DNA of 64,000 nucleotides from Verrucomicrobiia bacterium (GCA_035489575.1 DATHJY010000002.1:15080-79079), one strand, 5' to 3'. Positions 10,552 to 27,708 are shown, counted from the stretch's first letter. Made by a program: numbers and translations. Notes: generated by a model not told the origin, from the letters alone.

Positions 10552-12177
10552 AGAACTTATAACTGGCTCAAGAGCCGCTTCCATATCTCTGGTGGCGGCG
10601 TTTTTGTTTTCGGTTCGTACCTTCAAGAAACTTCTCTCAATTTCTGGGTATTTTTCGCCTATTGGGACGAGCCATTCATTCGGCTCTATAAAGAGTCTGT
10701 TATCTTGTAGCACAAGGTTTTTGCCTAAGGTCTTGAGTATCTCACGTTTGGTTCGTATGTCGCCGCTTTGGAAATGGATACGAGCGTAGGCAGCAAAGTT
10801 AAATGCTTTCTCGTTTAGCTCCATCCAATTCTCGGCTCGCTTCTCCGTATTCCGTAGCTGCTGGTCCAGGCTATCAATATCAACTTGCAGACGGCTTTTC
10901 TGATGCTTGTACTCCTCCTCATCTATCAACTCACGGTGTAGATAGTCAATGAGGCTGTCCCGCTGCGACTGCAGCTGCGCTCGTTTCTTGACGTTCTTGC
11001 CGTACATCCGCTCACGTTCGCTAACTTCAAGCTTATTGTTGCGGCGTAGTATCTTGAGTGCCAAGTCTTTGAACTCAGGGATTATCGTATACTTGCCCAG
11101 CTCCTCGTCTATATTGCTTTCAATGACCTCCAGTGGGGTATACACGGTCTGGTTGCAAGGACGGTCCATACTTTTTCGTGAGCAGTAATAGTAAACATAT
11201 GTTTTGTACTGTCCCTCGCTTTTTACGTACTTGGTGCGATGACGTGCCTGGACCAAACAATTACAAATGCCACAGCGAATCATACTGCTGAATGCGTAGT
11301 CAAAGTTACCGACACGGTGGTTGCCACGGTCGCCAAGTATCTGCTGAACTGTTTTGTACTCTTCCCAGGTAATCATCGGCTCGTAGTTACCCTTATGCAG
11401 GATTCCGTTATGCTCAAAATATCCAGCGTAGAAAGGGTTCCTGAAAATACGATACAGTTCGCTCTTACCTATGAGCTTGCCACCTGTCTTCGGTGTTTTC
11501 GGCATAACGAAGTTCATTTCTTCGAAGGCAATCTTCCATATTTGGCTTGGCGTGTATCCACCACCTAATAGGAAGGCAAACATACGCCTAACATCTTCAT
11601 ACCGCTCGGGGTCCTTACCGGTTTCCGTAACTATCTTATTGTCTTTCGGGCGAATAATGACCTGACCGTTGCTGTCTAATTGGGGTACTTTCATATATCC
11701 AGGAGGCACACGTCCTGGCTTTTCGCCAGTACCAGCCTTGGTTGCCAGCCCGCGCTTAACGTCCTTACCTTGTTTGGTGCTTTCGTACTGAGACTGGTTC
11801 ATTGTCATCTGCAGCATCATTATGCCTTCGGGCGAACTGTCAAAATTGTAAGAGCAGAACTTTAGGTCTTTTAAGGCTCCTCGCAACATATAAGTAATTT
11901 CGGCACTATCGATTTCATTTCTTGATAACCGGTTAGGGTGCCAAGCAACGATTGCATCTGCTTCGCCGTTTTTTATTGCGTCCATTAACTCTCTGAATAC
12001 TGGTCGTCCAGGTGTAAAAGCACTTTTACTTTCAGGGTCCATCCACCTGACAATATTCAGGTTACCGAACTGGCTTTTTATATTTTCAATCTGGCTAAGA
12101 TGCGACAGTTCCTGCTTTTCTTTGCTTTCGGATGATTTGCGTACGTAGGCGATATATCGCAGTTTCTGGGTTTTCAT
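10510..12177 (-). CDS. Large serine recombinase (integrase)
   Basis: YIAYVRKSSESKEKQELSHLSQ is the resolvase catalytic-Ser region. A recombinase domain follows, then a Cys cluster (CGICNC...YYYCSRK...CNQ) and a coiled-coil tail. The last 14 codons are antisense to the tRNA-Lys 3' half. Confidence 0.9.
   Translation of the reverse strand: MKTQKLRYIAYVRKSSESKEKQELSHLSQIENIKSQFGNLNIVRWMDPESKSAFTPGRPVFRELMDAIKNGEADAIVAWHPNRLSRNEIDSAEITYMLRGALKDLKFCSYNFDSSPEGIMMLQMTMNQSQYESTKQGKDVKRGLATKAGTGEKPGRVPPGYMKVPQLDSNGQVIIRPKDNKIVTETGKDPERYEDVRRMFAFLLGGGYTPSQIWKIAFEEMNFVMPKTPKTGGKLIGKSELYRIFRNPFYAGYFEHNGILHKGNYEPMITWEEYKTVQQILGDRGNHRVGNFDYAFSSMIRCGICNCLVQARHRTKYVKSEGQYKTYVYYYCSRKSMDRPCNQTVYTPLEVIESNIDEELGKYTIIPEFKDLALKILRRNNKLEVSERERMYGKNVKKRAQLQSQRDSLIDYLHRELIDEEEYKHQKSRLQVDIDSLDQQLRNTEKRAENWMELNEKAFNFAAYARIHFQSGDIRTKREILKTLGKNLVLQDNRLFIEPNEWLVPIGEKYPEIERSFLKVRTENKNAATRDMEAALEPVISSWRAQWDSNPRHPA
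10543..10553 (+). repeat. Left copy of the 11-nt direct repeat GGCCCTCCAAG (candidate att core, tRNA 3' end)
   Basis: Identical 11-mer at 26872-26882. Confidence 0.4.
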
Positions 12178-12547: not shown

Positions 12548-13060
12548 CTAGGGTCCACGGACCGATTTGCTAGCTATCAGTCTTTGCCGGTGTTGCTGGA
12601 AGTTATTTTTATTAACCGCTGCTACGGTATTTTTTGTAGTAGTCTCTCTGGTAATCTTTGTAATAGTTTCGCCATTTGGGACATAGTAGTTCGGTGGATT
12701 TGGGTAATCCAGTTTGCGGGATTCCTTCAAACTGGGAAGAATATTATGTAGTTCTTCCAGTTTTACTCTGAAGTGTCGTTTTGCAGGTACTTGAGCCAGC
12801 TTGTAATCAATAACATCGAGCTTGACGAGCTTCTTAATGGCTGTTTCTTGATTACTACGTGTTAAGCCCGTCTCCGCTTCGATGTCCGCAGCAGTCTTGT
12901 ATATCCAGCCAGATTTATCCTTGCCCTTACCGTGCCAATAAAGCAACTGTGAAAGTAACAGCCCTGCGTTTACACCGAACACTTGGCCAAGACCACCTAT
13001 GTAAAGCAGTGGCTTCTTTGAAAAATATTTAGCTATCGCTTGCTGCTCGGGCTTGCTCAT
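12548..13060 (-). CDS. Winged-helix DNA-binding protein (replication-initiator/DnaD-N-like)
   Basis: The ATG at 13060 follows GAGGA. LLSQLLYWHGKGKDKSGWIYKTAADIEAETGLTRSNQETAIKKLVKLDVI looks like the wHTH of phage/plasmid replication organisers. Confidence 0.45.
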   Translation of the reverse strand: MSKPEQQAIAKYFSKKPLLYIGGLGQVFGVNAGLLLSQLLYWHGKGKDKSGWIYKTAADIEAETGLTRSNQETAIKKLVKLDVIDYKLAQVPAKRHFRVKLEELHNILPSLKESRKLDYPNPPNYYVPNGETITKITRETTTKNTVAAVNKNNFQQHRQRLIASKSVRGP

Positions 13061-13253
13061 TACTAGTATCCTCATATTCATTTTTTGCGGTATACGCTGC
13101 TGACTGCTCTTGTGTGATTGGCTTGTAGACCTCATACATCTGACGCACCAAGCACAAAAGCTGGTGTCGTGCAGTTTTTTCGTCCAGCTCAATCCCGAAC
13201 TTTGTCTTATAAAGTTGTTGGAACTGCCGTATATCAGAGGTAGTCAGGTCCAT
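13029..13253 (-). CDS. Hypothetical small protein (74 aa)
   Basis: ORF in the island's leftward operon. It overlaps the next gene by about 32 nt. Confidence 0.4.
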   Translation of the reverse strand: MDLTTSDIRQFQQLYKTKFGIELDEKTARHQLLCLVRQMYEVYKPITQEQSAAYTAKNEYEDTSNEQARAASDS

Positions 13254-13255
13254 TA

Positions 13256-13498
13256 CTACTCTCCGTAAATCCTGCTTTTAAGTCGCTTTGTATTCTCGAA
13301 ATATCCAAGTGCACCAACGGCCAAGGAACCATTCCAGTACTCCTGAACTAGGCTGTTGACCTCTGTCGATTCAACAAATACAAAAACAGCTCGTCTGGGG
13401 TTTTCCTTGTTAACCCTGACGAGCAGCACGTTACAGGCAAGCAGTGCAGCTGCTAAGCCTAAGTCTGATGTCTCATAGTAATTTTCTGCCGTATTCAT
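13256..13498 (-). CDS. DUF5659-like small protein
   Basis: YETSDLGLAAALLACNVLLVRVNKENPRRAVFVF...LVQEYWNGSLAV...KRLKSRIY fits the DUF5659 pattern common in CPR genomes and phages. Confidence 0.55.
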   Translation of the reverse strand: MNTAENYYETSDLGLAAALLACNVLLVRVNKENPRRAVFVFVESTEVNSLVQEYWNGSLAVGALGYFENTKRLKSRIYGE

Positions 13499-13525
13499 TT
13501 CCTAGTCCCTTGACCGAGACAGGAA

Positions 13526-13585
13526 ATAAAAAAGTCGCTAAGACAGAATTATTCCCTATTTCGGGAACGAAACTGTCTTAACGAC
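13526..13585 (-). terminator. Terminator-like hairpin in the 5' leader of the leftward island operon
   Basis: Stem of 13 bp (12/13 paired): GTCGCTAAGACAG / CTGTCTTAACGAC, with an inner TTCCC/GGGAA hairpin. On the - strand it is followed by TTTTTTATTT, about 30 nt before the 13498 start codon. Confidence 0.4.
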
Positions 13586-13714
13586 ATTTATTCGATTAAA
13601 TTTCTAATGTACTACCCCTATTATACCATTTGTTAACGGCACTTAAAGCATTTTGTTACAATTAAATCAAAAGATGAGTATGAAAATCCAAATAATAAGA
13701 ATTGGAGCATACTC

Positions 13715-14428
13715 GTGGCAACAGAGACTACAAGTAAAAAGGTTGGAAGGCCGTCCAAAAAGGACGACGAGAGCTTTGATGCTGTCAAAAAATTACTGGC
13801 TGCTTTTTGGCGTGGTGCAAACGTAACCGAGGCCTGCATTTACGCTGGTATATCTCGTGAAACGTACTATCACTGGTGTCGTGAAATACCAGAGTTTTCT
13901 GACACTATTGCTGCTGCCAGAACAAAAGTCAGCGAGAACGCAAAGGCGGTAATTGTCGATGCCATAGATAACGGCGATATTAGTGCAGCAAAATGGTGGT
14001 TAGAGCGTAGGAATAAAAAGGAATTTGGGCCAAACGCAGTTGATGACCCTGAAATGCCGACTGAAACAGAAATACTAGAGGCGCAGCTGCAGCAAAACAT
14101 TAACAAGGGCATTGCGGACAAATACAGAGTCTACCTCTTCCGTAAGCGAGAGGAACATCTGGCTGCGTACAGCAAGAAAGATGAATATATGATTTCCAGA
14201 ATTGACAGGCTGATGCAGCTGTCTGACAAGGAACTTGCTGATTATGCTGGCGTTGAAGTATGGGCAACTGGCTCTGATTACGCAGGGGTCAGGAGACAGT
14301 TGATAATAAGGTTCGGTGGCGAAAACTACGAAGACCTAATTCCGTTGGCCGAAGAAACAGCAGAAAAATACGATTCAATGATAACAAGTGAGCCAGCCCC
14401 AGACAGTAAAAACTATACTACACAATAA
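13715..14428 (+). CDS. Phage terminase-small-subunit-like HTH protein
   Basis: GTG start with a GGAG RBS. GRPSKK...VTEACIYAGISRETYYHWCREIPEFSDTIAAARTK...AAKWWLERRNKKEFG follows the TerS N-terminal pattern (GRP..., HTH, ...KW.LER...K.FG). Confidence 0.5.
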   Translation: MATETTSKKVGRPSKKDDESFDAVKKLLAAFWRGANVTEACIYAGISRETYYHWCREIPEFSDTIAAARTKVSENAKAVIVDAIDNGDISAAKWWLERRNKKEFGPNAVDDPEMPTETEILEAQLQQNINKGIADKYRVYLFRKREEHLAAYSKKDEYMISRIDRLMQLSDKELADYAGVEVWATGSDYAGVRRQLIIRFGGENYEDLIPLAEETAEKYDSMITSEPAPDSKNYTTQ

Positions 14429-14500: not shown

Positions 14501-17089
14501 ATGCAAGACACGATTGACGACCAGAAACTTACCAAGGACTTCTTTCGCTTGCAAATTGAACAGCGTGATAATACCTACAACAAAAGCTTTTTCGACGAGA
14601 TAAATTCCAGGCTAATATTTGAGCAGTTAAAGGAGCCGGACGACCTTAAAGACGACTTAGCTCTAGTTACGCCAGAGGACCCTACCGTTCTCCTTATGGT
14701 GGTTGTCGAGAGTCTCCTTGCCCTGTTAAAGTATGACGTTTCTAGCGGCAGCAAAACAACTCTAAAAGATATTAAACCTGGCGATAGTGTTGGGCTAATT
14801 GAGAATCGAGTAATGTATCCCGGGCAGTTCCTGGGTAAGACTGTAATCCATGGAAAGAATTACTTTTCAGTTAAAAGGCTCGACAATGGAATGGTGGAAA
14901 GTATCCCTGAAGGTACGGGTAGGGAGTGGAGAATACAGCCGTACACATCGACAGACAATGCGAGTCGTACGCGAAGAACGAAAGTATATGGTAAGAAAAT
15001 CGAGCATATGTTGGAACTACCCAGCGGAGGATTAAAAACTTTTCAAAAATCAAAAATGCTTGTTGTAGCACCTGATAAAAGTGGCTTAATAGATGCAATC
15101 CGTGGAGTAAAGATTGGGGACGACCCGCTAGAGGCTATTTTCCCAATAGCAGATTACACTTCAACGGAAGACTGGCATTACGTCGGCTCGTTTGGTCTTA
15201 ATAACCTAAAGCAGGAGCCAATAATTGGATTAGTAGCAAATTGCGACATGGCTGTTGATATAGCAATGAAGGACCCGTCATACAAACTACTGGTGGTTGA
15301 CAGTGCCTCCAAGCTTCGAGCACATTATGGAAGTATTGAAAGATTAAATTCGGATACAAATCCTAGGAAAGTTCTTTGCTTGCTCCGTTCTGCAGATGAA
15401 GACGAATTAAAGACGTTGCATTCTATGGGAATCGAAAGTTATGTATGGAAAAGGGGAGATTTTAAGGGTATTGATACTGCTTCCTATCTACAAGAAAACC
15501 CAAACGAGCCCTTTGATAAACATAGCCAGATAGTCAGCTATTTGGCCGGGGAAGAGCCTGAGTTTCGTGAAATAAGTCTTCCAACCGACATAGAAAAGCA
15601 AGTCGAAGAATCTTACAGAATCCTCTACTCGCTGAGCAAACAGGTATCCCCTCTTCCGGAATCAGGCATTTTAATTCGCTGGGGAATCTCACTAATAAAT
15701 GGCTGGCTGCAACTGCCTTTTACTATCTATGACTTCCATGAATATATTGCCAAATACAACATTCCGACTAAGAGAATGGATGAAAAATATTCGGATTTCA
15801 AAAATCGAATTAGGGAATCCTACGGTCTCCTTATTCCTGCAATGCATTCAAGTATGTGCGAAGAACTTATTTCTAAGATGGATACATTATACGAATACTT
15901 CTCAAAGCATAGTCCAAAAAGCGAAGCAATTCTGGCTTTACTAGAAACAAATACCAACGATGCTACTTATGTTTATTGCTGCAGCCCTCAATATACGGCT
16001 GCTTTCAATAAGCTGAGGGGTAACAAGCGAATTCAAGCCAAAAATATTGAACAGCTAAGTTCGATGCCAGTAAAACGTGGAATTATTACAGGTTGGAGTA
16101 ATAGAAGAAACGCTGCTCAAGGCTTTCTTGCACCAGTAAAGAACCCCGTATTCATTCTGTACCGCAAGGAACTGGAAAGTCTGCAGCGTGTTTATAAGAC
16201 TCATCCTAGCTCTCCTGAGTCATCGTATGACAAAGTAGCCAGACAATCCCTCGGTGGTGTTGATACTACCTCAAGCGTTACTCTCTCGGACTCAGAAGAA
16301 GGCCAGTCCATAGAGTCGATTCTGGAGTACATTACACAGAAATTTAACACACCGCTCTATCCCAATTACGATTCCTCATACAACGGTACCGAACAAGAGG
16401 GTGTAGAAGCTCGCCAGATACAGTTTGATGATGGAACAATGGTTTATGCTGATGCCCAACACAAGTTTGATAAGCTAGAGCGTTCGAAGCACAAGATACT
16501 TAGAAGCAAAACAATCGAGATTAGTGAAGGCGATGAACTTGTATTTGCTGATTCCGAACGCAGTATGTTTGAAGAGTTACTCAGCATCTTGAAAGAATCA
16601 GAAGAGTACAGGAGCGTAGCAGCTACTGCGAATATCTGGAGAGACGCGTTACAAAAATACGTAGAAAGCAGTAATTCATCTGACCAGGAACTGGCTGGCA
16701 TGTTTAGGTTAGTCGGCTGTCCTCGAACAATACACACTATTCGCTCATGGCTAAGCGGTAATGTAATTGGTCCGTCCAATGATAACTATGCTGCGATTGA
16801 GGCCATTGCTAGAATTACCAAGGACCAGGCATTGATAGCAAATCGTGATGAGGTAATACGAGCGTGTAAGACTCTCCATGCTCTTCACGTTAAAACTGGC
16901 TGGCTCCTAGTAAGGAATATTATTAATTCAGCGATTGAACCAGACGACAGCGATGTAAATGAGGAAACACGTGAAAGGCTACAAGCCTATTCGGGAAGTT
17001 CTCGCATCGCAATCGTGAAATCAATATCAGAACAAACTTTCAGTGTGCCTGTCTCAGAAATCGGCAGATTAAATGAGGGTTTCTCATGA
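14501..17089 (+). CDS. Large protein of unknown function; first gene of the defence operon (DrmE-position candidate)
   Basis: 862-aa ORF whose stop overlaps the next start (ATGA at 17086-17089). I found no Walker A, nuclease or methylase motif by eye. Confidence 0.6.
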   Translation: MQDTIDDQKLTKDFFRLQIEQRDNTYNKSFFDEINSRLIFEQLKEPDDLKDDLALVTPEDPTVLLMVVVESLLALLKYDVSSGSKTTLKDIKPGDSVGLIENRVMYPGQFLGKTVIHGKNYFSVKRLDNGMVESIPEGTGREWRIQPYTSTDNASRTRRTKVYGKKIEHMLELPSGGLKTFQKSKMLVVAPDKSGLIDAIRGVKIGDDPLEAIFPIADYTSTEDWHYVGSFGLNNLKQEPIIGLVANCDMAVDIAMKDPSYKLLVVDSASKLRAHYGSIERLNSDTNPRKVLCLLRSADEDELKTLHSMGIESYVWKRGDFKGIDTASYLQENPNEPFDKHSQIVSYLAGEEPEFREISLPTDIEKQVEESYRILYSLSKQVSPLPESGILIRWGISLINGWLQLPFTIYDFHEYIAKYNIPTKRMDEKYSDFKNRIRESYGLLIPAMHSSMCEELISKMDTLYEYFSKHSPKSEAILALLETNTNDATYVYCCSPQYTAAFNKLRGNKRIQAKNIEQLSSMPVKRGIITGWSNRRNAAQGFLAPVKNPVFILYRKELESLQRVYKTHPSSPESSYDKVARQSLGGVDTTSSVTLSDSEEGQSIESILEYITQKFNTPLYPNYDSSYNGTEQEGVEARQIQFDDGTMVYADAQHKFDKLERSKHKILRSKTIEISEGDELVFADSERSMFEELLSILKESEEYRSVAATANIWRDALQKYVESSNSSDQELAGMFRLVGCPRTIHTIRSWLSGNVIGPSNDNYAAIEAIARITKDQALIANRDEVIRACKTLHALHVKTGWLLVRNIINSAIEPDDSDVNEETRERLQAYSGSSRIAIVKSISEQTFSVPVSEIGRLNEGFS

Positions 17090-18801
17090 GAACACTCCCA
17101 CCATTCATCCATAAGACTACAAGTAATGCTGAGCGTAAGTTATTTAAAATCATCAAAGAATCGGAAAATCTTGATAACTGGTATTGCCTTCATTCTCTTG
17201 GGCTCAGCAAACATTTATCAAAACGCGAAGGCGAGATAGATATTTTGCTTGTAGGCCCAGCTGGCGTATTTGTTATTGAAATAAAAGGTGGCCGCGTGCG
17301 TCGTGAAAATGGGGTGTGGAAATTCACTGACCGCTATGGACGCGTGTCCGAAAAGCGTGAATCGCCATTCACACAAGCACGGTCTGCAATGTATTCACTA
17401 AGAGCAGACTTAGCTCAACAGTTTGACACCAATATCAACCAATACTTATTCGGTTATGGTGTAGCATTACCAGATATACAATTTACCACCGAGTCGCCCG
17501 AGTGGGACCTGCAAACTGTGTTTGATGTACGCGACACCAATATGCCTTTTGAGGATTACTTAAATAGGCTCATTGGAAACTGGAAGTCTAGACAACGTTC
17601 CGCGAAGCAGCTTACAAAGAAAGAAATCAGTGAGATTGTTAAATATGTGAGAGGCGATTTCGAAACCATATTCCCAATTAGTGTTGCAATATCTGACTCG
17701 GAAGCAGAGATTATCAAATTAACTGACGAACAATTCATGTGTCTTGATGCAATGGCAGAAAATAAACGTGTTCTTTTCCAAGGAGCGGCCGGAACGGGGA
17801 AGACGTTGTTGGCGGCAGAACAAGCCAAACGGAACGAAGCACAAGGCATTAGAACTCTTCTTCTCTGCTATAACAAGTTCCTAGCTGCATGTCTGGACGA
17901 GTCGCTAAACAAAACCGAGAAAATGCAACATGTTGACGTAAAAACAATTCATAGCTTTTTCCACGACACAATTACTCAGGCTGGACTTGAGCAGGGCCTC
18001 AAAACTGCTCAATCAAACGATAATAATGAGCTTTACCAGCAAGTGTATCCGGAGTTGTTTAATAAGGCCTGGAGTGATGAATACTCTTACGACGCAATAA
18101 TTATCGATGAAGCACAGGACGTCCTTTCAGATACATACATCAATTGCCTAAGTAGGGCTGTCCGAGGCGGCATTGAAGATGGTAGATGGACCGTTTTTCT
18201 TGACCCAGAGAATCAGAAAAACATGTTTTTGAATCTAGATGAAAAAACCTTTAGTAAATTAAAAGCGCTATCTGTTACCTATAAGTTGAGTATAAACTGC
18301 AGAAACACTAAACCAATTGCGATTCAAACAGAAATTATCTCGGGCATAAAAGCACCTACAGTAAATAAGCTAGAAGGTATACCTGTTCGCTATGTGTGGT
18401 TTCAAGATGATGCAGACCAGGCTAATAAAGTTAGTTACGAAATAAACAAACTGCTTGATGGCCGAGTCTCGGCAAACGATATTACCATCCTGTCGCCAAA
18501 AAGATATAGTTCGTCCTTGGCGGGCAGTGGTCGTCTAAGGACAAAACAGCCTTTGTTGCTTCTAGATACAGACAATATAAGGAGCGAACGTGGAGAAAAG
18601 ATAGCTTATACTTCTATACAGAGCTATAAGGGTCTAGAGAGTTCTGTAGTCATATTGACTGACATCAGTGAGCTAAACCGCGACTGGGATAAAGTAGTCA
18701 ATTATGTTGGCTTTACTCGTGCCAGGACGGCACTTGTGGTGGCAGTAAAGAGTACCTTGAAGCCAGAGTACAGGAATAAGTTAAAAGAACTTTACGAGTA
18801 A
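17086..18801 (+). CDS. NERD-domain nuclease fused to an SF1 (UvrD/RecD-like) helicase
   Basis: The N-terminus, KREGEIDILLVGPAGVFVIEIKGG, is a NERD pattern. FQGAAGTGKTLLA is the Walker A and AIIIDEAQDV the Walker B. YKGLESSVVILTDI...GFTRARTALVV is a UvrD_C-like end. Confidence 0.85.
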   Translation: MRTLPPFIHKTTSNAERKLFKIIKESENLDNWYCLHSLGLSKHLSKREGEIDILLVGPAGVFVIEIKGGRVRRENGVWKFTDRYGRVSEKRESPFTQARSAMYSLRADLAQQFDTNINQYLFGYGVALPDIQFTTESPEWDLQTVFDVRDTNMPFEDYLNRLIGNWKSRQRSAKQLTKKEISEIVKYVRGDFETIFPISVAISDSEAEIIKLTDEQFMCLDAMAENKRVLFQGAAGTGKTLLAAEQAKRNEAQGIRTLLLCYNKFLAACLDESLNKTEKMQHVDVKTIHSFFHDTITQAGLEQGLKTAQSNDNNELYQQVYPELFNKAWSDEYSYDAIIIDEAQDVLSDTYINCLSRAVRGGIEDGRWTVFLDPENQKNMFLNLDEKTFSKLKALSVTYKLSINCRNTKPIAIQTEIISGIKAPTVNKLEGIPVRYVWFQDDADQANKVSYEINKLLDGRVSANDITILSPKRYSSSLAGSGRLRTKQPLLLLDTDNIRSERGEKIAYTSIQSYKGLESSVVILTDISELNRDWDKVVNYVGFTRARTALVVAVKSTLKPEYRNKLKELYE

Positions 18802-18813
18802 CCGTATAAGATA

Positions 18814-21800
18814 ATGATGAACATGAAGAATAATCCCTACCAAGACTTTAGACAGGAAATGATAGATTTCCTCGAATTAGATATTATTGGACCCAAATCT
18901 GGTATCGAAGTAATCGAGGAAGCACCAACTTCACGATATTCCGCTGGGATACTTTTCCCTCAACTTGTCGATAACGATGAAGAAGTTAACGAGAGAAAAG
19001 AAAAACTTGATATGCGTTCTAGGGACGAAGAAGAAGGCACTATTGAATATGCCACTTCATTTTTCCCATCCGCGATGGGAATTAGTTTTTCAATCGACGA
19101 TACAGTCAGGCAGTTAATTATTCAGGTTGATACAGCCAGGTATGATTCTCTAGAAAGTTCAGACCTTGGACTGGTTTCTTGTCGAGCGACAAGTATTAGT
19201 GATGCTTATATGCAGAATGCTGCGTTTACTGAAAAATTTGATTATAAAGATGGGCAACTATCTTTGAAGTCCAGTTTCTCAAAAACTGAGAGAGATTACT
19301 TTATATCAGTTCATCCTGACAACAAACAGTTTGCAAAAATTCTTTATAAAATGTTTCGGCTACAGAACGGCTGGAAACGAATCCCTATCAGCGAAAAAGT
19401 TGAGCTAAACTTAACGGGTTCAAGAACAGAATACAAAATCGAAGGGGAGCAGCTACAGATTGTAGTCATATCGAAGCCTTCACGTAACGGCAAGAAACTG
19501 TGCACCGTTAGTCTTATTAATACATCCAAAACGTCTCAGTCACAGAACGACCATAAATTAGCTTACTTTCAGACTTCAATTAAGCTCACTAGCAAGTCTG
19601 GCGTTGAAGTTTTCGAGGACCTTAGTACGACTGAATATATAAGCAGTGACCCAGAAGAGGCATCCTTGAAGTTGCTTTTTAGGAATAAGAGATACTTTGC
19701 TACTGGCCATGGCTGCTCTGCGGATTGGGAGAGCGGTGGTAAGCTTGCGAGTGCGGTATATTCAGTGACAATTCCTCGACATATCATCCCTCAAATGAGT
19801 TTTGACATTAAATCGCGAGACGGGTCCAACGTCCCAAATTTAAAAATGGCTACACTAGCCTATTCAAAACAGGATGAGATTATAAAAGAATTAAAATTAC
19901 TTGTAGCTACTTATGAAAATTGGATAGATGACCTGTCTGCACAATCTAAAACTTTAGATAAAAGCCTTAATAGCGTGTCACTTGAGCACATAGAGTCATG
20001 TCGAGAATCAGCGAGCAGGATGAACTCTGGAATTAATTTTCTAGGAAAAAATCCAAAAGCTATGCGTGCATTTAATCTTGCCAACGAGGCGATGTTAATG
20101 CAAAGAGTGCACACAAATCTCCAATCAAAAAAGAAGTTTCCTGATGAAGGGCACGCAATGCCTGATTCGTATGATGATTCTGATGCTAAGAAGCCAGCAA
20201 CGTGGCGGCCTTTTCAGATAGCCTTCTTATTAATGGAGGTTGAGTCTCTCGTAAATAACGAAAGCAATTTCAAAGATATAGTGGACTTAATTTGGTTTCC
20301 TACTGGTGGTGGTAAAACTGAAGCGTATCTTGGCTTAACTGCGTTTACTATTTTCTATAGAAGACTTACACACTCGGATGATGAATCGGGGGGTACGACA
20401 GTAATAATGAGATATACTCTGAGACTTTTGACCTCGCAACAGTTTCAGAGAGCCTGCACACTTATTTGTGCCTGCGAAAAACTTCGCTCTAACAGCTCAG
20501 ACTTAGGAGATACGGCGATAACAATTGGTCTATGGCTGGGACAATCTACGCCATATTCAATCAAAGATGCTGAATTTCGATTAGCTGACCTGATGAGGCA
20601 GGTTGATGGCAGCTACAATAATCCATTCCAAGTTCTAAGCTGTCCTTGGTGCGGGACTCACATGGTTAAAAAACAATCAAAAGGCGTAAATGCTTACAGG
20701 GCTATAACACGTCCACGTCATCGTTTTGTAATGTATTGCCCTAACCGTGGATGTGATTTTTTTGACGAACTCCCGATTAGTATCGTTGATGAAGACGTAT
20801 ACCACCAAGCACCGACTCTCTTGTTTGGAACAGTAGATAAGTTTGCTATGTTGCCATGGAAACCCGAAGCATCAAAAATCTTTGCACTCGACGAAGGCAA
20901 TAAGAACCTTTCGCCCGAATTAATAATTCAAGATGAGCTGCATTTAATCTCGGGCTCACTGGGTACGGTAGTTGGCTTATACGAATCAGCGATTGACCTA
21001 ATGTGCTCTGCCAAAGGTAGTAAGCCAAAAATAATTGCATCAACGGCCACTATTCGCCGTGCGAAACAACAATGTAACGCACTTTATGCTCGAGACTTCA
21101 GACAATTTCCTTCGCCCGGTCTCGATGCTAGTGATTCATTTTTTGCACGCGAGGCAGATGTTACTAGCGATAGCCCAGGGAGACTATACATAGGAGTTAT
21201 GCCGTCAGGAACTACATCTACCTGGATGCAAATCAAATTAATGGCAGGAATGTCACAAGGTGCTGAGTTTATAGTGGCTGATGACGAAGTTAAAGATAAG
21301 TTTTGGACACAAGTTGTCTATTGTAATAGTATCCGCGAATTAGGTACGTCTATGAGCTTAGCTTATGATGACGTAAAAGCTTACTCCGATTCAGTGGCCA
21401 AAAGACTTGGTAAAAAAGCACGCGTATATTCAGATAAGGATGTTCAAGAGCTTACGAGTCGAATATCCCCAGAATCAATCCCAAAAATATTGCAACGACT
21501 TAGTGTTGAGTACCCAAGCCAAGAAGTTATTGACACCCTTTTAGCGACAAACATGATTTCTGTTGGCGTTGATATTGACCGTCTAGGATTAATGTTAGTA
21601 CTTGGACAACCAAAAACAACCTCAGAATATATCCAGGCAACTAGTCGTGTTGGTCGCGCGTATCCAGGCTTGGTTATAACCTTATATGGACCAACGAAGA
21701 GCCGTGACCGGTCGCACTATGAACAATTTGCAAAGTACCACCAGTCCCTTTATAGGTACGTAGAGCCAACTAGCGTTACACCGTTCTCCGCCCCAGTGAG

Positions 21801-22188
21801 AGAGAAAGCACTTCACGCTGTTATTATCACTCTTGTGCGTCATTACATGGGCATACAGTCAGGAAAAGAGCTTAGTAGTTTCAAGCCGAGTGATAAAAAA
21901 TTCCAAGAAATAGTCGCCTCAATACTAAGTCGAGTTAAGCAGGTTGATGATACAGAAGTCGACAAAACTAAGGAAGAAATTGATAAAATAGCCGAAACAA
22001 TATCAGAATTAGGACTGCTAGGAGATGGGGCGGTGTTCGGTTCTTCAAACCCCTTGGGTAATCATGGCAAAGCTGCGTTAATGCGTACCCCAGCTGATAA
22101 AAAAGGTGTGGGAAGGTACTCAACGTTACAATCAATGAGGAGCACAGACGTTGAGGCTTCAATTAGATTGGACCACGGACATGAGTAG
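18814..22188 (+). CDS. drmA: DrmA-like SF2 DExH helicase (DISARM-type)
   Basis: WFPTGGGKTEAYLGL, IIQDELHLISG, LLATNMISVGVDIDRL and QATSRVGRAYPG, with a long N-terminal region that has no obvious motif. It sits directly upstream of a DUF1998 gene. Confidence 0.7.
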   Translation: MMNMKNNPYQDFRQEMIDFLELDIIGPKSGIEVIEEAPTSRYSAGILFPQLVDNDEEVNERKEKLDMRSRDEEEGTIEYATSFFPSAMGISFSIDDTVRQLIIQVDTARYDSLESSDLGLVSCRATSISDAYMQNAAFTEKFDYKDGQLSLKSSFSKTERDYFISVHPDNKQFAKILYKMFRLQNGWKRIPISEKVELNLTGSRTEYKIEGEQLQIVVISKPSRNGKKLCTVSLINTSKTSQSQNDHKLAYFQTSIKLTSKSGVEVFEDLSTTEYISSDPEEASLKLLFRNKRYFATGHGCSADWESGGKLASAVYSVTIPRHIIPQMSFDIKSRDGSNVPNLKMATLAYSKQDEIIKELKLLVATYENWIDDLSAQSKTLDKSLNSVSLEHIESCRESASRMNSGINFLGKNPKAMRAFNLANEAMLMQRVHTNLQSKKKFPDEGHAMPDSYDDSDAKKPATWRPFQIAFLLMEVESLVNNESNFKDIVDLIWFPTGGGKTEAYLGLTAFTIFYRRLTHSDDESGGTTVIMRYTLRLLTSQQFQRACTLICACEKLRSNSSDLGDTAITIGLWLGQSTPYSIKDAEFRLADLMRQVDGSYNNPFQVLSCPWCGTHMVKKQSKGVNAYRAITRPRHRFVMYCPNRGCDFFDELPISIVDEDVYHQAPTLLFGTVDKFAMLPWKPEASKIFALDEGNKNLSPELIIQDELHLISGSLGTVVGLYESAIDLMCSAKGSKPKIIASTATIRRAKQQCNALYARDFRQFPSPGLDASDSFFAREADVTSDSPGRLYIGVMPSGTTSTWMQIKLMAGMSQGAEFIVADDEVKDKFWTQVVYCNSIRELGTSMSLAYDDVKAYSDSVAKRLGKKARVYSDKDVQELTSRISPESIPKILQRLSVEYPSQEVIDTLLATNMISVGVDIDRLGLMLVLGQPKTTSEYIQATSRVGRAYPGLVITLYGPTKSRDRSHYEQFAKYHQSLYRYVEPTSVTPFSAPVREKALHAVIITLVRHYMGIQSGKELSSFKPSDKKFQEIVASILSRVKQVDDTEVDKTKEEIDKIAETISELGLLGDGAVFGSSNPLGNHGKAALMRTPADKKGVGRYSTLQSMRSTDVEASIRLDHGHE

Positions 22189-24004
22189 ATTTAGCAATGA
22201 TAAAAATTCAAGTCAGCCTACGCTGAGACGCAGTCAAACAGTAACAACTTTCGGTATTGGTGCCATAGCTGACTTGCCAAACGCATCATTAATGGTGTGC
22301 GGAATTGATAAGTGGGACCCACAGCGAGGTATTAAATTATATGACCCACGCCTAGAAAAAAAATTAGGGGCTAACTACTTCTTAATGGCCCCGGAAGCAC
22401 CAATTGATGGGATTGTCGCGGTCCGTTTTCCTAGATGGATGCGATGTCGAAATAAGTTACATAATGCCTTGATGCCGTTAGAGGATTGGCGAGAATCAGC
22501 AGTAGCAACATCACGCTTTAGTTCTTTCGATGAAAGACCTTATTGCCACGTTTGTTCGCTTGACTTGATACCTTCCAGGTTTGTCGTTGCTTGCCGGAAG
22601 GGACATATTGATGACTTCCCATTCATTGAATGGGCACATACAGGCAGAGATATTTGTAGTAAGCCAAAACTTGAATACAGAGAACTGGGAAACTCATCCA
22701 GCCTTTCAGGGATTATTATTCATTGTGGAACGTGTGGCTCGAGTAGAAGTATGGGTGGTTCGTTTGGTAGAGACAATATAGAGAAAATAGCTCACTGCAA
22801 AGGCTCTATGCCCTGGGAGATGATATGGAGTAGCCAATGTGGAGAAAATCTAACCACTCTGCAACGTGGTGGTACGAATGTACACTTCCCAGTAATTAAG
22901 AGTTCAATACTGATACCGCCTCATTCAACAGAGGGGCTGAAGTCAAGAATCATAGATACCCCTCTTTGGGCGGCATTTGAATCCCAGCAGAACGCAGAGG
23001 ACTTAGAATTTTATCTTGAAAGAATATCAGCTCAACTTACTGAGCCTATTGAAAAGGTTCGAGCTATTGTGAACGAAATGATGGGAGATGACGAAGACAA
23101 GGGAGATGGTAAAAATGAGGAAGAGTACAGGTATGAGGAGTACCTGGCTTTCATGGGCGAGTATGACGATAGCCTTAACAATAAGAAAGATTTCCTTATT
23201 GAGAAGCAAGATGCCGCAAAGTATAAACTTTCCTTCGTTGACTCAGTCGTACTAGTAAAAAAACTTCGCGAAATCCGAGTACAAACAGGATTTTCTCGCA
23301 TAAGACCTCCCCAAGCTTCTGATGATGCATCGGTAAAGGATGATGAAAAGATAGAAACTATGTCGGTCACGCAAAATAAACGTTTTCGATGGAAGCCAGG
23401 CTATGAAGTAAGAGGCGAAGGAATATTTATAGAATTTAAGCCAAGTCAACTTAGGCAATGGGCAAAAAATCCCAGAACAGCTGCTCATTACAAGAACTTA
23501 CTTGTAAGGAACCAGAAAAACCCCGATTCATTTGGTGTTGTAGATGAATTAACGCCAGAGTTTATATTTTTGCACACACTAGCACATCTACTTGTTAGAC
23601 AACTCAGTTTCGAATGTGGGTATTCGAGTTCTGCGTTAAGAGAACGGCTATACTGTACTTCAAGTTCAAAGGGTAAACCTATGTACGGGATTCTCATATA
23701 CACCGCCGAAGGCGATTCGGACGGAACTCTCGGTGGGTTAGTAAGGCAGGGAGAGGCAGACTTATTCCCAGATACTGTCATGAAAGCAGTTACAGAGGCA
23801 CAATGGTGCTCTAGCGACCCGTTATGCATTGAGTCTGATGGACAGGGTTACCAAGCTTTGAATTTAGCAGCATGCCATTCCTGCTGCATGTTACCTGAAA
23901 CCTCATGTGAGTTGATGAATAGATACCTTGATAGAGCAGCAATTGTAGGTACACTAAGCGACCCAGAGATAGGTATATTCTCTGAGGAGCTTAACCAGCT
24001 ATAG
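22181..24004 (+). CDS. drmB: DrmB-like DUF1998 protein
   Basis: The ATG at 22181 overlaps the upstream stop by 8 nt. Cys clusters are present (CHVC...C, CGTCGS). The C-terminal LAACHSCCMLPETSCELMNRYLDR matches the DUF1998 signature. Confidence 0.75.
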   Translation: MSRFSNDKNSSQPTLRRSQTVTTFGIGAIADLPNASLMVCGIDKWDPQRGIKLYDPRLEKKLGANYFLMAPEAPIDGIVAVRFPRWMRCRNKLHNALMPLEDWRESAVATSRFSSFDERPYCHVCSLDLIPSRFVVACRKGHIDDFPFIEWAHTGRDICSKPKLEYRELGNSSSLSGIIIHCGTCGSSRSMGGSFGRDNIEKIAHCKGSMPWEMIWSSQCGENLTTLQRGGTNVHFPVIKSSILIPPHSTEGLKSRIIDTPLWAAFESQQNAEDLEFYLERISAQLTEPIEKVRAIVNEMMGDDEDKGDGKNEEEYRYEEYLAFMGEYDDSLNNKKDFLIEKQDAAKYKLSFVDSVVLVKKLREIRVQTGFSRIRPPQASDDASVKDDEKIETMSVTQNKRFRWKPGYEVRGEGIFIEFKPSQLRQWAKNPRTAAHYKNLLVRNQKNPDSFGVVDELTPEFIFLHTLAHLLVRQLSFECGYSSSALRERLYCTSSSKGKPMYGILIYTAEGDSDGTLGGLVRQGEADLFPDTVMKAVTEAQWCSSDPLCIESDGQGYQALNLAACHSCCMLPETSCELMNRYLDRAAIVGTLSDPEIGIFSEELNQL

Positions 24005-25043
24005 GCACGGCTTGGGTAACAAGGCTTGTTAGACCTGACTCTTCTTTAGCAGGAGCTTTAGCAATTTCTTCTTGAGAAAGCTGTTCGTAAACCTGATTCG
24101 CTAGAGATTCAATGACTGGCACACACACAGAGTTGCCAAACTGTCTGTAAGCAGGTGTTTTTGCTAAGGGAAGTTCAAATGAGTCTGGGAACCCCATTAG
24201 TCTTGCACACTCGCGCGGAGTTAGCATTCTTGGGTTTTTGCCTTTTTGCACAACCAGATTCTCGCGGCCATCCTTACCGTACCTGGACGTAAGCGTGTTA
24301 GCGATACCGTTTGGGTCAACCATGTAGTGTCTAAAGCCATGTCCCTTTTCCTGATTTCGTATAGTTCGGGCTTTATGGGACTCCCAAAGCCTGTCTGAAA
24401 TCGTGAATCGTGAGTCAGGGTTTTTTTCAAATATTTCTTTTACTGAACTTACCTTAGGCTCAATATCCTTAAACTGGAATTTATTTTCAAGATTAGCTAC
24501 CATATAAATTCTTTTTCTTCTCTGTGGTAGCAGAGTAGAAGCATCGATTACTTTGTATTCGAAAAGATAACCCATATCTTCAAGAGATTTTTTAATCGTT
24601 GCGAGCGTCTGACCCTTTTCGTGCTTTTCCAAATTAGCAACATTCTCCAAGAACACCACTGATGGCTTATGGTATTCAACAATTCTTATAATTTCAAAGA
24701 ATAAGTTGCCCTGCTTTTCATCCTTAAAGCCATGAGCACGCTTTAGGCCATATCGAGCCGATATTCCAGCTAAAGAAAAGGGCTGGCAGGGGAAGCCAGC
24801 GCAAAGAACATCAAATTTGGGTATTTCTTGCTCATTCACATCGCGAATATCACGTGTGTCTATTTTGCCTTCAAAATTTGCTGCATAGGTAGCTGCTGCG
24901 CTCTTGTCATACTCGTTTGTGTATACGCACTCAAAACCAGCTCGTTCAAAACCAAGCCGAATACCGCCTATACCCGCAAATAAATCTATAAATTTAATAC
25001 TTTTTTTGTGTTTTGACATTGGAATACTAATATATTTTACCAT
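23991..25043 (-). CDS. DNA (cytosine-5) methyltransferase (DrmMII-position)
   Basis: FIDLFAGIGG (motif I), GFPCQPFSLAG (motif IV), VVFLENV (motif VI) and QFGNSV near the C-terminus. Alternative starts lie at 25049 (GTG) and 25019. Confidence 0.9.
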   Translation of the reverse strand: MVKYISIPMSKHKKSIKFIDLFAGIGGIRLGFERAGFECVYTNEYDKSAAATYAANFEGKIDTRDIRDVNEQEIPKFDVLCAGFPCQPFSLAGISARYGLKRAHGFKDEKQGNLFFEIIRIVEYHKPSVVFLENVANLEKHEKGQTLATIKKSLEDMGYLFEYKVIDASTLLPQRRKRIYMVANLENKFQFKDIEPKVSSVKEIFEKNPDSRFTISDRLWESHKARTIRNQEKGHGFRHYMVDPNGIANTLTSRYGKDGRENLVVQKGKNPRMLTPRECARLMGFPDSFELPLAKTPAYRQFGNSVCVPVIESLANQVYEQLSQEEIAKAPAKEESGLTSLVTQAVPIAG

Positions 25044-25140
25044 GCACACCCCCGAAGCCAGGTTGGTTTACTAAAGCCTCTGTACGTATTATATGACCGT
25101 AAGGGCAATATGCGTAATTAATAGATACGGAAGGAAAGAT

Positions 25141-25554: not shown

Positions 25555-26787
25555 TTAATGATATTGTTTCTTTCCTTGGAGCGAAAGATGATACTCGTGC
25601 ATTGTATCGGTGTCCTGTTCGCTACCAAGTTCGCCAATCTCTAAAGTTACTCCTCGCCTCGTTGGGCCAAACCTTCTAGCAAATTCGCCCTTAAAACGGT
25701 AAAGAGGGCTCTTGCTCAAGTCAGTTGGTAAATCGTCCTTACTGAATAAGGGGTCGTTAGGCCTTCTACCATAGGAATCGACTGCCCACTTTGTACCAGC
25801 ACCAGAACTACCAAATATCTCGCCACCATAATTCATCGACCTGGGGTCGGGCATACACAGAATTCCATTACCAAAGATATTCCAATCTGACTTTGAGATA
25901 TCTCTCTCAGGATAAAGCCACTCTTCTTTGCCAGATGCAATGAACATATACGCACGACTCTTGATAATAAAGTTAAGCTGTTTTACTTCAAGTTCAGATA
26001 GTTTTCTGTTGAGGTGGAGTCGATGAAAATCAAAAACGGTATTTCTATAGAAACCGGGATTTGGTCTAAGGTTTTTGGAAGACTGATAAGGGTTCCTTAC
26101 CCAGGATAGATTTGTAAGAATGAGTGCTTTGTTCAGATTAAGCGGGAATACGGTGTGAGAGCCTACCATACGAATATCAGGGTCGCGAAAACCCTTGCAC
26201 CACGTTGGCTGTCTTGGACCCAACTGACGGTTGTAAATCGTAATTGGGTGGTCAGAGACAATAAACTTTGTATCAGAGTCAGCAGCATCTACTAATTGCC
26301 AAACACACTCAGTCCAAATGGCATCGAATACATTTTTAAGTTCAACCATTCTCCTAAGAATTTCGTTGGTATCATTTGAGTTAATTTGCTCAGATAACCA
26401 AACCAAACCTTTTTTTGTTCGCATCCTCTGTGTCGTCATGTATTGCAATAGGTCCCCAATGGGCTCGCCGCGCCAGTCGGGGTATTGATAGTTTATGAAG
26501 TGGTCCACTGCATCTTTACCTTTGGTATCTATTGCTCCAAAGAATAGTCTTTCAATATCACGCGACTCTAATCCGCTAAATCTAGTAGTATAGAGGTCGT
26601 CTTCCGCGAAACACCTGCTAGGATGCCACTTCTTCAACGGCTTTGCATAATGCAGCCTCCCTTTTGAATCACGAAATCCCTCTGGTCTTAACCGTAGGTA
26701 AAAATAACTGCCGTCAGTAGAGTCGGGTGAAATAAAGTTTTTTTGATACCACTCGGGTACGTAATGGTTGTATTTAAAGCCAGGCAT
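25555..26787 (-). CDS. DUF4238 domain protein
   Basis: The N-terminal NHYVPEWYQKNF matches the hallmark HYVPxFYLxxF start of DUF4238. The mid-region FIVSDHPITIY also fits. Confidence 0.7.
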   Translation of the reverse strand: MPGFKYNHYVPEWYQKNFISPDSTDGSYFYLRLRPEGFRDSKGRLHYAKPLKKWHPSRCFAEDDLYTTRFSGLESRDIERLFFGAIDTKGKDAVDHFINYQYPDWRGEPIGDLLQYMTTQRMRTKKGLVWLSEQINSNDTNEILRRMVELKNVFDAIWTECVWQLVDAADSDTKFIVSDHPITIYNRQLGPRQPTWCKGFRDPDIRMVGSHTVFPLNLNKALILTNLSWVRNPYQSSKNLRPNPGFYRNTVFDFHRLHLNRKLSELEVKQLNFIIKSRAYMFIASGKEEWLYPERDISKSDWNIFGNGILCMPDPRSMNYGGEIFGSSGAGTKWAVDSYGRRPNDPLFSKDDLPTDLSKSPLYRFKGEFARRFGPTRRGVTLEIGELGSEQDTDTMHEYHLSLQGKKQYH

Positions 26788-26871
26788 ATCATAATTCTAT
26801 ACGTTAGCAACAGAATGTGTTAAAGAAGAACCCTTATTGCTAGATATTTTGGTTGCAACAGCGATACATAC

Positions 26872-26882
26872 GGCCCTCCAAG
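26872..26882 (+). repeat. Right copy of the 11-nt direct repeat GGCCCTCCAAG (candidate att core / displaced tRNA 3' end)
   Basis: Identical to 10543-10553, and followed immediately by a terminator hairpin. Confidence 0.4.
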
Positions 26883-26917
26883 CAAAAAGACCTGTCCAAA
26901 AAGGCAGGTCTTTTTGC
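26882..26917. terminator. Bidirectional intrinsic terminator
   Basis: Perfect 13-bp stem GCAAAAAGACCTG / CAGGTCTTTTTGC with a 10-nt loop. An A-run and a T-run flank the GC core. Confidence 0.6.
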
Positions 26918-26930
26918 TTAGGAAAATTCA

Positions 26931-27020
26931 GCGAGGGACTCGAATCCACGACACGCCAAAAGGGTGCCCGAGGGTAAAAACAGCCCTATGGTTGCTATGC
27001 AACATTCCCAGTAGCGGCCC
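26931..27020 (-). pseudogene. Degenerate tRNA-Lys-like remnant in inverted orientation
   Basis: The reverse complement reads GGGCCGCTA...(insert)...GCACCCTTTTGGCGTGTCGTGGATTCGAGTCCCTCGC. GTGTCGTGGaTTCGAGTCCC matches the tRNA-Lys variable/T arm with 1 mismatch. The acceptor stem cannot pair. Confidence 0.35.
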
Positions 27021-27043
27021 TGTCGCCAAATTGAAAGAACTCA

Positions 27044-27442
27044 TCAAAAAGGGTTTGTAATTTTCAGCGCACCTATCTGGCGGCCGTCTTGCATGTCCTC
27101 ACTGATCAATGTCGTGACACCAGAGTTTTGCGCTGCTACGACAATCAGGGCATCCCAAAAGGACAAACTGTGCTTCTCCTCCAGCTCTGACGCGGCGATT
27201 ATGTCAGCAGGGGTTGGCTGATAAATTTGCCAAGCTGATAACTCTTTTATAATTTCTCTGGCTTCCTGTCTGGGAAGCGTTTTGGCTAGTTTCCGGGTGA
27301 CTGTCACATAGAATTCCTGCAGCACCTGCGTGCCCGAACGATTATTCCAACATTCTGTCAAGATATCCTGGGCTTTTTTGTGCTTGTCGCTTTCTTCTTT
27401 ATCGAAAGCGTAAACGAGTACGTTAGTATCCAGAAATGTCAT
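27044..27442 (-). CDS. vapC: PIN-domain toxin (VapC family)
   Basis: MTFLDTNVLVYAFD..., a conserved acidic residue pattern, and a start that overlaps the antitoxin stop (ATGA). Confidence 0.85.
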   Translation of the reverse strand: MTFLDTNVLVYAFDKEESDKHKKAQDILTECWNNRSGTQVLQEFYVTVTRKLAKTLPRQEAREIIKELSAWQIYQPTPADIIAASELEEKHSLSFWDALIVVAAQNSGVTTLISEDMQDGRQIGALKITNPF

Positions 27443-27681
27443 CGTTGGTGAAGCTCTTCGCGGTCGGGCATTTTACCGCCGCCCAAGTCATAGCCATGCT
27501 TTAGTCTGGATAGGGCGGATCTTTGAGCCTTTTCATAGCCTGACTCTTTAGCGGCTGCCTTTTTAATCTCTTCGCTGACTAAACGACTCAGCGACATAGA
27601 CTGCTTAGCTGCGATAATTTTTGCGTCCCTTACGGTACTTTCATCCAGTTGAATGGTGAGATTTCTTTTCATAAGCTTCAT
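27439..27681 (-). CDS. vapB: Ribbon-helix-helix antitoxin (VapB-like)
   Basis: MKRNLTIQLDESTVRDAKIIAAKQSMSLSRLVSEEIKK is a typical RHH N-terminus. It is translationally coupled to vapC. Confidence 0.7.
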   Translation of the reverse strand: MKLMKRNLTIQLDESTVRDAKIIAAKQSMSLSRLVSEEIKKAAAKESGYEKAQRSALSRLKHGYDLGGGKMPDREELHQR

Positions 27682-27708
27682 GATAGCAAAGTTACGTGCT
27701 ACACGCAA

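Follow-up and report, generated by a model that had tools for sequence, protein, structure and literature searches.

A DISARM operon with a NERD nuclease-helicase fusion on a serine-recombinase island

Organization of the operon

The stretch of DNA analysed here comprises 64,000 nucleotides of a genome assembled as Verrucomicrobiia bacterium (GCA_035489575.1, DATHJY010000002.1:15080-79079); we refer to the whole stretch as the window and number it from its first letter. It carries a five-gene locus resembling the defence system DISARM, in which a fusion of a NERD nuclease and a superfamily 1 (SF1) helicase, hereafter the NERD-helicase, is encoded between drmE and drmA, followed by drmB and a convergent C5 cytosine methyltransferase gene (Table 1). 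We found that the NERD-helicase belongs to the operon as a conserved and translationally coupled component, co-inherited with DrmA and DrmB (DrmAB) down to about 25% identity, and that the canonical PLD nuclease of DISARM, DrmC, is absent from the island on which the operon resides.

The genes are closely spaced, as read directly from the sequence at each junction. The drmE and NERD-helicase genes share an ATGA overlap (17086-17089), a 12-nt gap (18802-18813) separates the NERD-helicase gene from drmA, and the ATG of drmB at 22181 creates an 8-nt overlap with the end of drmA that includes its stop codon (22181-22188). The 3' ends of drmB and the methyltransferase gene overlap convergently by 14 nt (23991-24004). 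The methyltransferase ORF as listed starts with GTG (25049), with in-frame ATG codons a few codons further in. A scan of the region for promoters and terminators returned counts no higher than chance.

An original prediction, made from the window by eye, had proposed these five ORFs together with their coordinates, overlaps and gap, and every one was matched by the ORF calls and the junction reading. The motifs that it quoted for three of the proteins also lie where they are expected. In DrmA, motifs I, II and VI correspond to FPTGGGKTEAY at residue 495, IIQDELHLISG at residue 704 and QATSRVGRAYPG at residue 941. DrmB ends in the cysteine-rich DUF1998 signature, AACHSCCMLPETSCELMNRYLDR, at residue 563, and the methyltransferase has motifs I, IV and VI as DLFAGIGG at residue 22, GFPCQPFS at residue 85 and FLENV at residue 133.

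Table 1. Features of the island, in window coordinates
Feature	Position	Strand	Remarks
tRNA-Lys (UUU)	10475..10551	+	ARAGORN; integration site, left island border
Large serine recombinase	10510..12177	-	555 aa; Pfam Resolvase 3.4e-19, Recombinase, Zn_ribbon_recom
Island backbone genes	12548..14428	both	214-aa ORF (-), DUF5659 protein, HTH/small-terminase-like protein
DUF5659 protein	13256-13498	-	Pfam 3.8e-13; recurs in related islands L024, L025
HTH/small-terminase-like protein	13715-14428	+	237 aa; just upstream of the operon; Pfam Sf6_terminase 2.7e-05, below cut-off
drmE	14501-17089	+	862 aa
NERD-helicase	17086-18801	+	571 aa
drmA	18814-22188	+	1124 aa
drmB	22181-24004	+	607 aa from ATG; alternative in-frame TTG start at 22151
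C5 methyltransferase	23991-25049	-	352 aa; convergent with drmB
Variable cargo	25555..27708	-	DUF4238 protein and PIN/DUF6364 toxin-antitoxin pair (Pfam); outside the DISARM system

Identity of the DISARM proteins

Profile searches identified the proteins flanking the NERD-helicase as DISARM components, all four of them intact. DrmE matched the NCBIfam model DrmE_fam over residues 38-857 (295.8 bits, cut-off 80), as well as Pfam DrmE_C (1.4e-14) and PADLOC DrmE (3.8e-11), and scored below the narrower NCBIfam equivalog DISARM_DrmE (57.6 bits, cut-off 250). DrmA, a superfamily 2 (SF2) helicase of the YprA family, matched PADLOC DrmA at 2.4e-225 and Pfam Helicase_C (pfam00271), and passed the NCBIfam model for short-type DrmA, DISARM_DrmAS (964.7 bits, cut-off 950). 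DrmB was recognized by PADLOC DrmB (9.5e-80), NCBIfam DrmB_fam (494 bits, cut-off 240) and Pfam MZB (2.3e-07). The methyltransferase gave Pfam DNA_methylase (pfam00145) at 5.7e-89 and TIGR00675 dcm at 295 bits, with DrmMII as its best PADLOC model (3.4e-110).

The domain at the DrmB C terminus, DUF1998 (pfam09369), is now named the MrfA Zn-binding domain in Pfam, a name that speaks for an MrfAB/YprA-type DNA-repair module without a role in defence. We consider such a module extremely improbable and rejected it on the profile assignments, since the curated models for DrmA, DrmB and DrmE all pass their cut-offs. Whereas the MrfAB/YprA pair consists of a helicase with a fused OB-CON-DUF1998 region and the exonuclease MrfB, the window encodes helicase and DUF1998 protein in two separate genes, as in DISARM, with no exonuclease partner. 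The adjoining C5 methyltransferase gene and the location on a low-GC integrative island, relatives of which bear other defence cargo, likewise argue against repair. The products of the genes at 18814 and 22181 are thus DrmA and DrmB, as had been predicted, by both the PADLOC matches and the NCBIfam cut-offs.

Domains and conserved residues of the NERD-helicase

The NERD-helicase begins with a NERD domain of the PD-(D/E)xK nuclease type (Pfam, 2.4e-13), followed by an SF1 core recognized by AAA_19, ResIII, SLFN-g3_helicase/DUF2075 and UvrD_C_2. Its best PADLOC model, RTasNERD-Hel, matched nearly the full length (3e-50); PADLOC Nhi gave a weak partial match over residues 212-443 (8.6e-08) and GajB gave partial matches of 4.7e-10 or weaker. 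The protein reached the cut-off of no NCBIfam model. An AlphaFold2 model built from 94 homologues had a mean pLDDT of 86, and Foldseek searches with it retrieved the SF1 helicases SLFN11/14, UvrD, Upf1, Ighmbp2, RecD2 and Dna2. A phmmer search against PDB sequences returned no match, so that only the fold search was informative.

Although the 64 NERD-helicases linked to DISARM share a mean identity of only 31%, the residues expected at both active sites are invariant in all 64. These include the nuclease residues E50, D52, E65 and K67, Walker A residues K239 and T240, Walker B residues D341 and E342, the Q motif and two arginine fingers.

Absence of a PLD nuclease

Class 2 DISARM, as Ofir et al. 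are said to have described it in 2018, is made up of DrmA, DrmB, DrmMII and DrmE, with DrmC reportedly the usual third core gene. A six-frame search of 9-31 kb found the HxKxxxxD motif of PLD nucleases in no real ORF; the single match in this region, in an open stretch of 40 codons antisense to the recombinase gene, was discounted. Neither Pfam nor PADLOC matched a PLD family (pfam13091) on any island ORF. The re-inspection by motif, Pfam and PADLOC therefore turned up no PLD ORF, in keeping with the failure of the first reading to find the motif by eye.

The same holds in relatives of the operon. None of the six NERD-helicase homologues with retrieved contigs has a recorded PLDc family within 10 kb, and a check of 14 related NERD-linked loci gave no PLD-type DrmC. 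Matches to HxKxxxxD in loci L088, L040 (537 aa) and L047 (477 aa) were rejected as DrmC, being unconserved among homologues and without a PLD profile match.

Linkage of the NERD-helicase to DrmA and DrmB

Around all six homologues with retrieved contigs (76, 70, 59, 50, 44 and 38% identity) we found the same cassette, DrmE_C, NERD-helicase, Helicase_C and MZB, with a C5 methyltransferase in most. A convergent methyltransferase gene placed as in the window also occurs in L024, L025, L027 and L029. A genome scan seeded with the NERD-helicase, with one genome per species, returned at least 23 loci at 22-37% identity, and DrmA and DrmB directly adjoin the NERD-helicase in 8 of the 23 listed. Those eight come from Sedimenticola, Patescibacteria, Solirubrobacteraceae, Acidimicrobiaceae, Verrucomicrobiota, Vagococcus, Lachnospiraceae and Imhoffiella, and so span Gammaproteobacteria, Patescibacteria, Actinomycetota, Verrucomicrobiota and Bacillota. 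In L016 (4488-11539), a NERD-helicase gene is directly coupled to that of an unsplit, 1771-aa YprA-like helicase (DEAD, Helicase_C and MZB), which lies upstream of it; the partnership with YprA-type helicases therefore reaches beyond the split DrmA/DrmB pair. In L005, the NERD-helicase follows a short DrmE-like gene, and the locus is truncated by the end of the contig.

Metagenomes were sampled as the best 80 loci from a scan with a DrmA alignment, ranked on their match to the window DrmA. A NERD-helicase is adjacent in 51 of the 63 assessable loci (81%), a proportion that describes the window DrmA's own clades and not DISARM as a whole, because of this ranking. It lies just upstream of DrmA in 26 loci, immediately after DrmB in 22 and on both sides in 3, and is absent from 12 loci with at least 2 kb of flank; the contigs of the other 17 were too short for judgement. 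Two NERD-helicase paralogues each, one before DrmA and one after DrmB, were observed in L085, L094 and L102.

The slot after DrmB is the position of drmC in a canonical class 1 control, a Nostoc plasmid. In the NERD-less sister loci L046 (16638-19526) and L054 (15906-18812), it is occupied by a UvrD helicase with a C-terminal PD-(D/E)xK domain (Cas4/AddB-like), a fusion of 963-969 aa. The domain order of this fusion is opposite to that of the NERD-helicase, with the same logic, and it is preceded by an ORF of about 150 aa resembling type IV methyl-directed restriction enzymes. A PLDc_2 protein filled the slot once, in the NERD-less locus L040.

Distances between NERD-helicases correlate with those between the DrmA proteins of the same 53 loci (r=0.89), a value reached by none of 2000 Mantel permutations; for DrmA and DrmB, r=0.97. 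In the trees, both the type of module and its position track the DrmA clades, with occasional swaps. Among plasmid records from cultured bacteria, 100 have a DrmA-like gene and 15 have a NERD-helicase detectable by this query. The latter adjoins DrmAB in at least 10 of the 15, including plasmid P4 of Deinococcus gobiensis I-0 and pTA1_2 of Rhizobium ruizarguesonis TA1. A scan of viral contigs gave one locus, its matches being dominated by generic P-loop patterns.

Taken with the gene order, these comparisons show that the NERD-helicase is not a chance neighbour of DrmAB. The module had been predicted to be a swapped or added nuclease-helicase. Its homologues are found together with DrmAB very frequently and in diverse phyla, and in many sister loci they occupy the DrmC slot; that description is therefore apt.

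Other accessory genes vary around this core. Some loci have DrmA, DrmB and a NERD-helicase without DrmE (L060, L068, L078, L089, L097 and similar), and the upstream genes sampled in L068, L078 and L097 encode GajB/UvrD-like helicases of 608 to about 1600 aa. L078 has an additional HSP70-like ATPase upstream of DrmA. In loci of the window type, a 681-aa MzaE/AbiU-like gene often lies between the methyltransferase and DrmE. The accessory content of DISARM is far more varied than its two published classes.

The mobile island and its genomic setting

The DISARM operon is cargo of a serine-recombinase island at tRNA-Lys. The recombinase gene, encoded on the other strand, runs into the 3' end of the tRNA gene. 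At about 10.4 kb the GC content drops from about 0.52 into the range 0.38-0.47, where it stays up to about 27.8 kb. In L024, L027 and L029, the cassette is likewise flanked by recombinases homologous to this one. The 3' end of the recombinase gene overlaps that of an opposite-strand tRNA gene in L024 (1925-3651; tRNA-Lys CUU) and in L029 (2052-3801; tRNA-Glu). These islands look like a family of tRNA-targeting serine-recombinase elements with defence cargo. The prediction of a mobile island is borne out by the tRNA gene, the overlapping recombinase, the dip in GC and the recurrence of this arrangement in relatives.

To the right of the methyltransferase gene, each related island differs, with NUDIX/zeta toxin, SMODS and DUF6602, SRA-HNH, or HNH and TrwB genes, and this side is therefore a site of variable cargo. 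In the window, the cargo there (25555..27708) had no PADLOC matches. A search in the + orientation found no direct repeat of the tRNA 3' end that could serve as attR, which leaves the right border of the island undefined. On the minus strand, near 26.93 kb (about 26885-26965), lies a tRNA-like 3' fragment, GTGTCGTGGATTCGAGTCCC, with one mismatch to the tRNA-Lys T arm and followed by a strong hairpin. This fragment falls between the DUF4238 and PIN toxin genes, in the wrong orientation for a simple attR, and could be an old element border.

Further repeats were observed on either side. Just to the left of the intact tRNA-Lys gene is a broken second copy (10290-10314 and 10401-10445). Its first piece matches the tRNA 5' end over 25 identical nt, and its second, after an interval of about 86 nt, holds an anticodon arm together with a damaged T arm; an earlier integration may have left this copy behind, or it may be a tRNA with an interruption. 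On the right, a 119-nt direct repeat with 79% identity links 27557-27675, in the DUF6364 antitoxin gene, with 29770-29888. The second copy lies in a low-GC stretch (29.6-30.8 kb) past a 529-aa acidic ORF rich in proline and glutamate. At 43132-45825 on the plus strand, the window encodes an 897-aa KAP-family P-loop NTPase (PADLOC PifA, 1.2e-16) with just four database relatives at E<=1e-30. This gene, which lies outside the island, may represent another defence function unrelated to DISARM.

The host had been predicted to have a genome of the candidate phyla radiation (CPR) type. Type IV pilus and ComEC-like genes are compatible with a CPR host, as is a RecA relative labelled Saccharibacteria (84% identity). 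The labels conflict, however, and so do not prove the assignment: another of the closest named RecA relatives is labelled Limnocylindria, an automated third-party label, and the exact database record of the NERD-helicase is labelled Verrucomicrobiae. Given this disagreement among the sequence and its closest relatives, at least some automated labels of metagenome-assembled genomes are probably wrong.

A proposed role for the NERD-helicase

In our favoured reading, to which we assign a probability of about 0.7, the five genes constitute a single DISARM system, akin to restriction-modification, on the serine-recombinase island at tRNA-Lys, with the NERD-helicase as its effector. DrmMII would methylate a host motif and thereby mark self DNA, as published work on DISARM suggests. 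The Serratia DrmAB complex, studied by cryo-EM, is activated by unmethylated DNA with 5' single-stranded overhangs (PMC9142583), and by analogy the window DrmA and DrmB would form a sensor complex that loads on the ends of unmethylated invading DNA. The NERD-helicase could then act as an ATP-driven SF1 motor whose PD-(D/E)xK nuclease degrades the DNA marked by DrmAB, and would take the nuclease role for which DrmC is a dispensable candidate. DrmE would be a required component without known activity.

Published genetics leave room for such an effector. In class 2 DISARM, drmA, drmB and drmE are each essential, drmC is dispensable, and loss of the methyltransferase is deleterious (10.1101/2021.12.28.474362). 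DrmC is often missing, and the effector nuclease of DISARM is an open question (PMC9142583, 10.1101/2021.12.28.474362). Two parallels support the NERD-helicase as the probable effector nuclease: immunity by the staphylococcal protein Nhi needs both nuclease and helicase activity (10.1101/776245), and ArmD is a helicase-nuclease accessory of the YprA-based ARMADA type II system.

Several observations weigh against this reading, in addition to the restricted reach of the metagenome sample. Only about 10% of the plasmid records that bear DrmA have a detectable NERD-helicase, and in 3 of the 15 plasmids that have one (Selenomonas, Thermomicrobium and Sphingomonas) it does not lie beside DrmAB. Co-phylogeny of neighbouring genes is also expected from plain co-transfer. 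A plasmid of Lactiplantibacillus plantarum (CP096856.1, locus L119) has a C5 methyltransferase, a DrmE-sized ORF, DrmA and DrmB, with no DrmC or NERD-helicase annotated. Four-gene loci of this kind imply that the nuclease module may be accessory rather than essential. Downstream in L119 is a Y-family polymerase gene, as in metagenome locus L044.

Since related NERD-helicases can stand by themselves or beside different genes (Selenomonas, Thermomicrobium, Sphingomonas with DUF3883, and the UG34 reverse transcriptases), the protein may act autonomously. It would then be a single-gene defence of the Nhi type (10.1101/776245), nested in DISARM operons and co-selected with them while mechanistically independent. 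We regard this as quite unlikely. Its Nhi-like architecture, including the Pfam SLFN-g3_helicase match, the weak PADLOC Nhi match, its solitary or otherwise partnered relatives on some plasmids and genomes, and the existence of four-gene DISARM without a nuclease module would all fit. Yet the window gene shares an ATGA overlap with drmE and is wedged between it and drmA, its counterparts in the operons are always contiguous with DrmA or DrmB, and every one of the six retrieved homologues, at 38% identity or more, sits in the cassette. The linkage also persists over very deep divergence, and the same DrmA clades otherwise fill the slot with another nuclease or helicase-nuclease, never with both in our sample.

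Alternatively, the NERD-helicase might be integral to the system and act upstream of DrmAB, either resecting ends into the overhangs that activate the complex or sensing ends in the manner of GajB, rather than serving as the terminal effector. The activation of DrmAB by 5' single-stranded overhangs (PMC9142583) would be in keeping with such a step, and RecB, AddAB and Dna2 are SF1 helicase-nucleases of end resection, with Dna2, RecD2 and UvrD among the structural matches of our model. The partial GajB matches, and a window gene that precedes drmA instead of occupying the DrmC slot, point the same way. Among related loci, however, the gene switches between upstream and downstream positions with nothing else changing, and the strict conservation of catalytic residues suits either role. 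On balance, an upstream function seems unlikely.

Extending the proposal of the NERD-helicase as effector, we offer more tentatively, as a possibility short of an even chance, that helicase-nuclease fusions are the real effectors of a large overlooked class of DISARM, mainly as NERD-SF1 and less often as UvrD-PD-(D/E)xK proteins. DrmAB would here sense the methylation state of DNA and either pass the DNA on to a processive helicase-nuclease or activate one. The definition of DISARM by the triad of DrmA, DrmB and a PLD protein would explain how such a class escaped notice. If true, this would suggest a reason for the dispensability of DrmC: in canonical systems, DrmAB could borrow a helicase-nuclease of the host.

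The effector step of DISARM has had DrmC, dispensable and often absent, as its sole candidate nuclease, DrmAB itself being without one. A conserved helicase-nuclease with intact catalytic residues, often in the DrmC slot, is a concrete candidate for this missing step, and the Deinococcus and Rhizobium plasmids named above place versions of it in culturable bacteria. The type II DISARM definition given in the PADLOC paper counts DrmC as required, and detection rules of this type would under-call such loci or mis-file them; NCBIfam has no model that names the NERD-helicase protein. The tRNA-targeting island, in turn, shows a route by which the system spreads, possibly into uncultured bacteria with small genomes.

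Comparison with known systems

The operon represents a DISARM variant that is widespread, with examples from many bacterial phyla, and of which we found no description in searchable papers. Within the searchable literature, supplements included, no paper ties a NERD-helicase to DrmAB or DISARM, although an earlier passing mention is possible, for instance in Ofir et al. 2018. The literature does state that there are many uncharacterized DISARM-like classes, and that a PLD nuclease typically follows DrmB in DISARM; the example definition of type II DISARM in the PADLOC paper requires DrmC (PMC9252829).

Several systems share parts of this architecture. Nhi (SERP2475 of staphylococci; 10.1101/776245) likewise joins an N-terminal PD-(D/E)xK nuclease to a DUF2075/Schlafen-type SF1 helicase. 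It acts alone, however, whereas the window gene forms part of a DrmAB operon and has been inherited together with it; the sequence similarity is weak, and the NERD-helicase is without the C-terminal glyoxalase-like domain of Nhi. The closest profile match, RTasNERD-Hel, comes from UG34 systems, in which some reverse transcriptases are paired with NERD-helicases of the same two-domain architecture (PMC9226505). The window partners are instead DrmE, DrmA and DrmB, with no reverse transcriptase domain in any island ORF. Gabija differs as well, given only partial GajB matches and no GajA-like gene (OLD/TOPRIM).

Two further systems are built on YprA-family helicases. ARMADA type II (ArmA-D; 10.1101/2025.09.15.676423) resembles the window operon in combining such a helicase with a methyltransferase and an accessory SF1 protein, the GajB/UvrD-like ArmD, that has an N-terminal nuclease-type domain. 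Its helicase ArmC, however, is unsplit and has a Vsr nuclease, the ArmD domain is a RelE RNase rather than NERD, the methyltransferase is PglX-like rather than of the C5 type, and there is no DrmE. TALON, described in the same work (10.1101/2025.09.15.676423) as extremely rare and mainly from Chloroflexota, combines a YprA-like helicase and a NERD nuclease and is the sole published link of this kind that we found. It has an unsplit, ARMADA-like helicase together with TPR-CSD and TBP genes, and no NERD-SF1 fusion is described for it.

The nearest relative remains DISARM itself, whose class definitions we took from two papers that cite the original description (10.1101/2021.12.28.474362, PMC9142583). 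Against class 1, neither an SNF2 family, as in DrmD, nor an N6-adenine methyltransferase family, as in DrmMI, was matched on the island ORFs. Class 2, as the two papers summarize it for Bacillus paralicheniformis, has the order drmE-drmA-drmB-drmC-drmMII. The window operon shares with it DrmE, a short-type DrmA, a separate DrmB and the C5 methyltransferase DrmMII, as well as the relative order of drmE, drmA and drmB and a mobile island. It differs in its DrmE, which passes the broad DrmE_fam model and not DISARM_DrmE, in the missing PLD-type DrmC, and in the additional 571-aa NERD-SF1 protein between DrmE and DrmA. The operon thus has DrmA, DrmB, DrmE and DrmMII, four of the five class 2 components, but lacks DrmC, and is best described as a DISARM variant rather than a canonical member of class 2.

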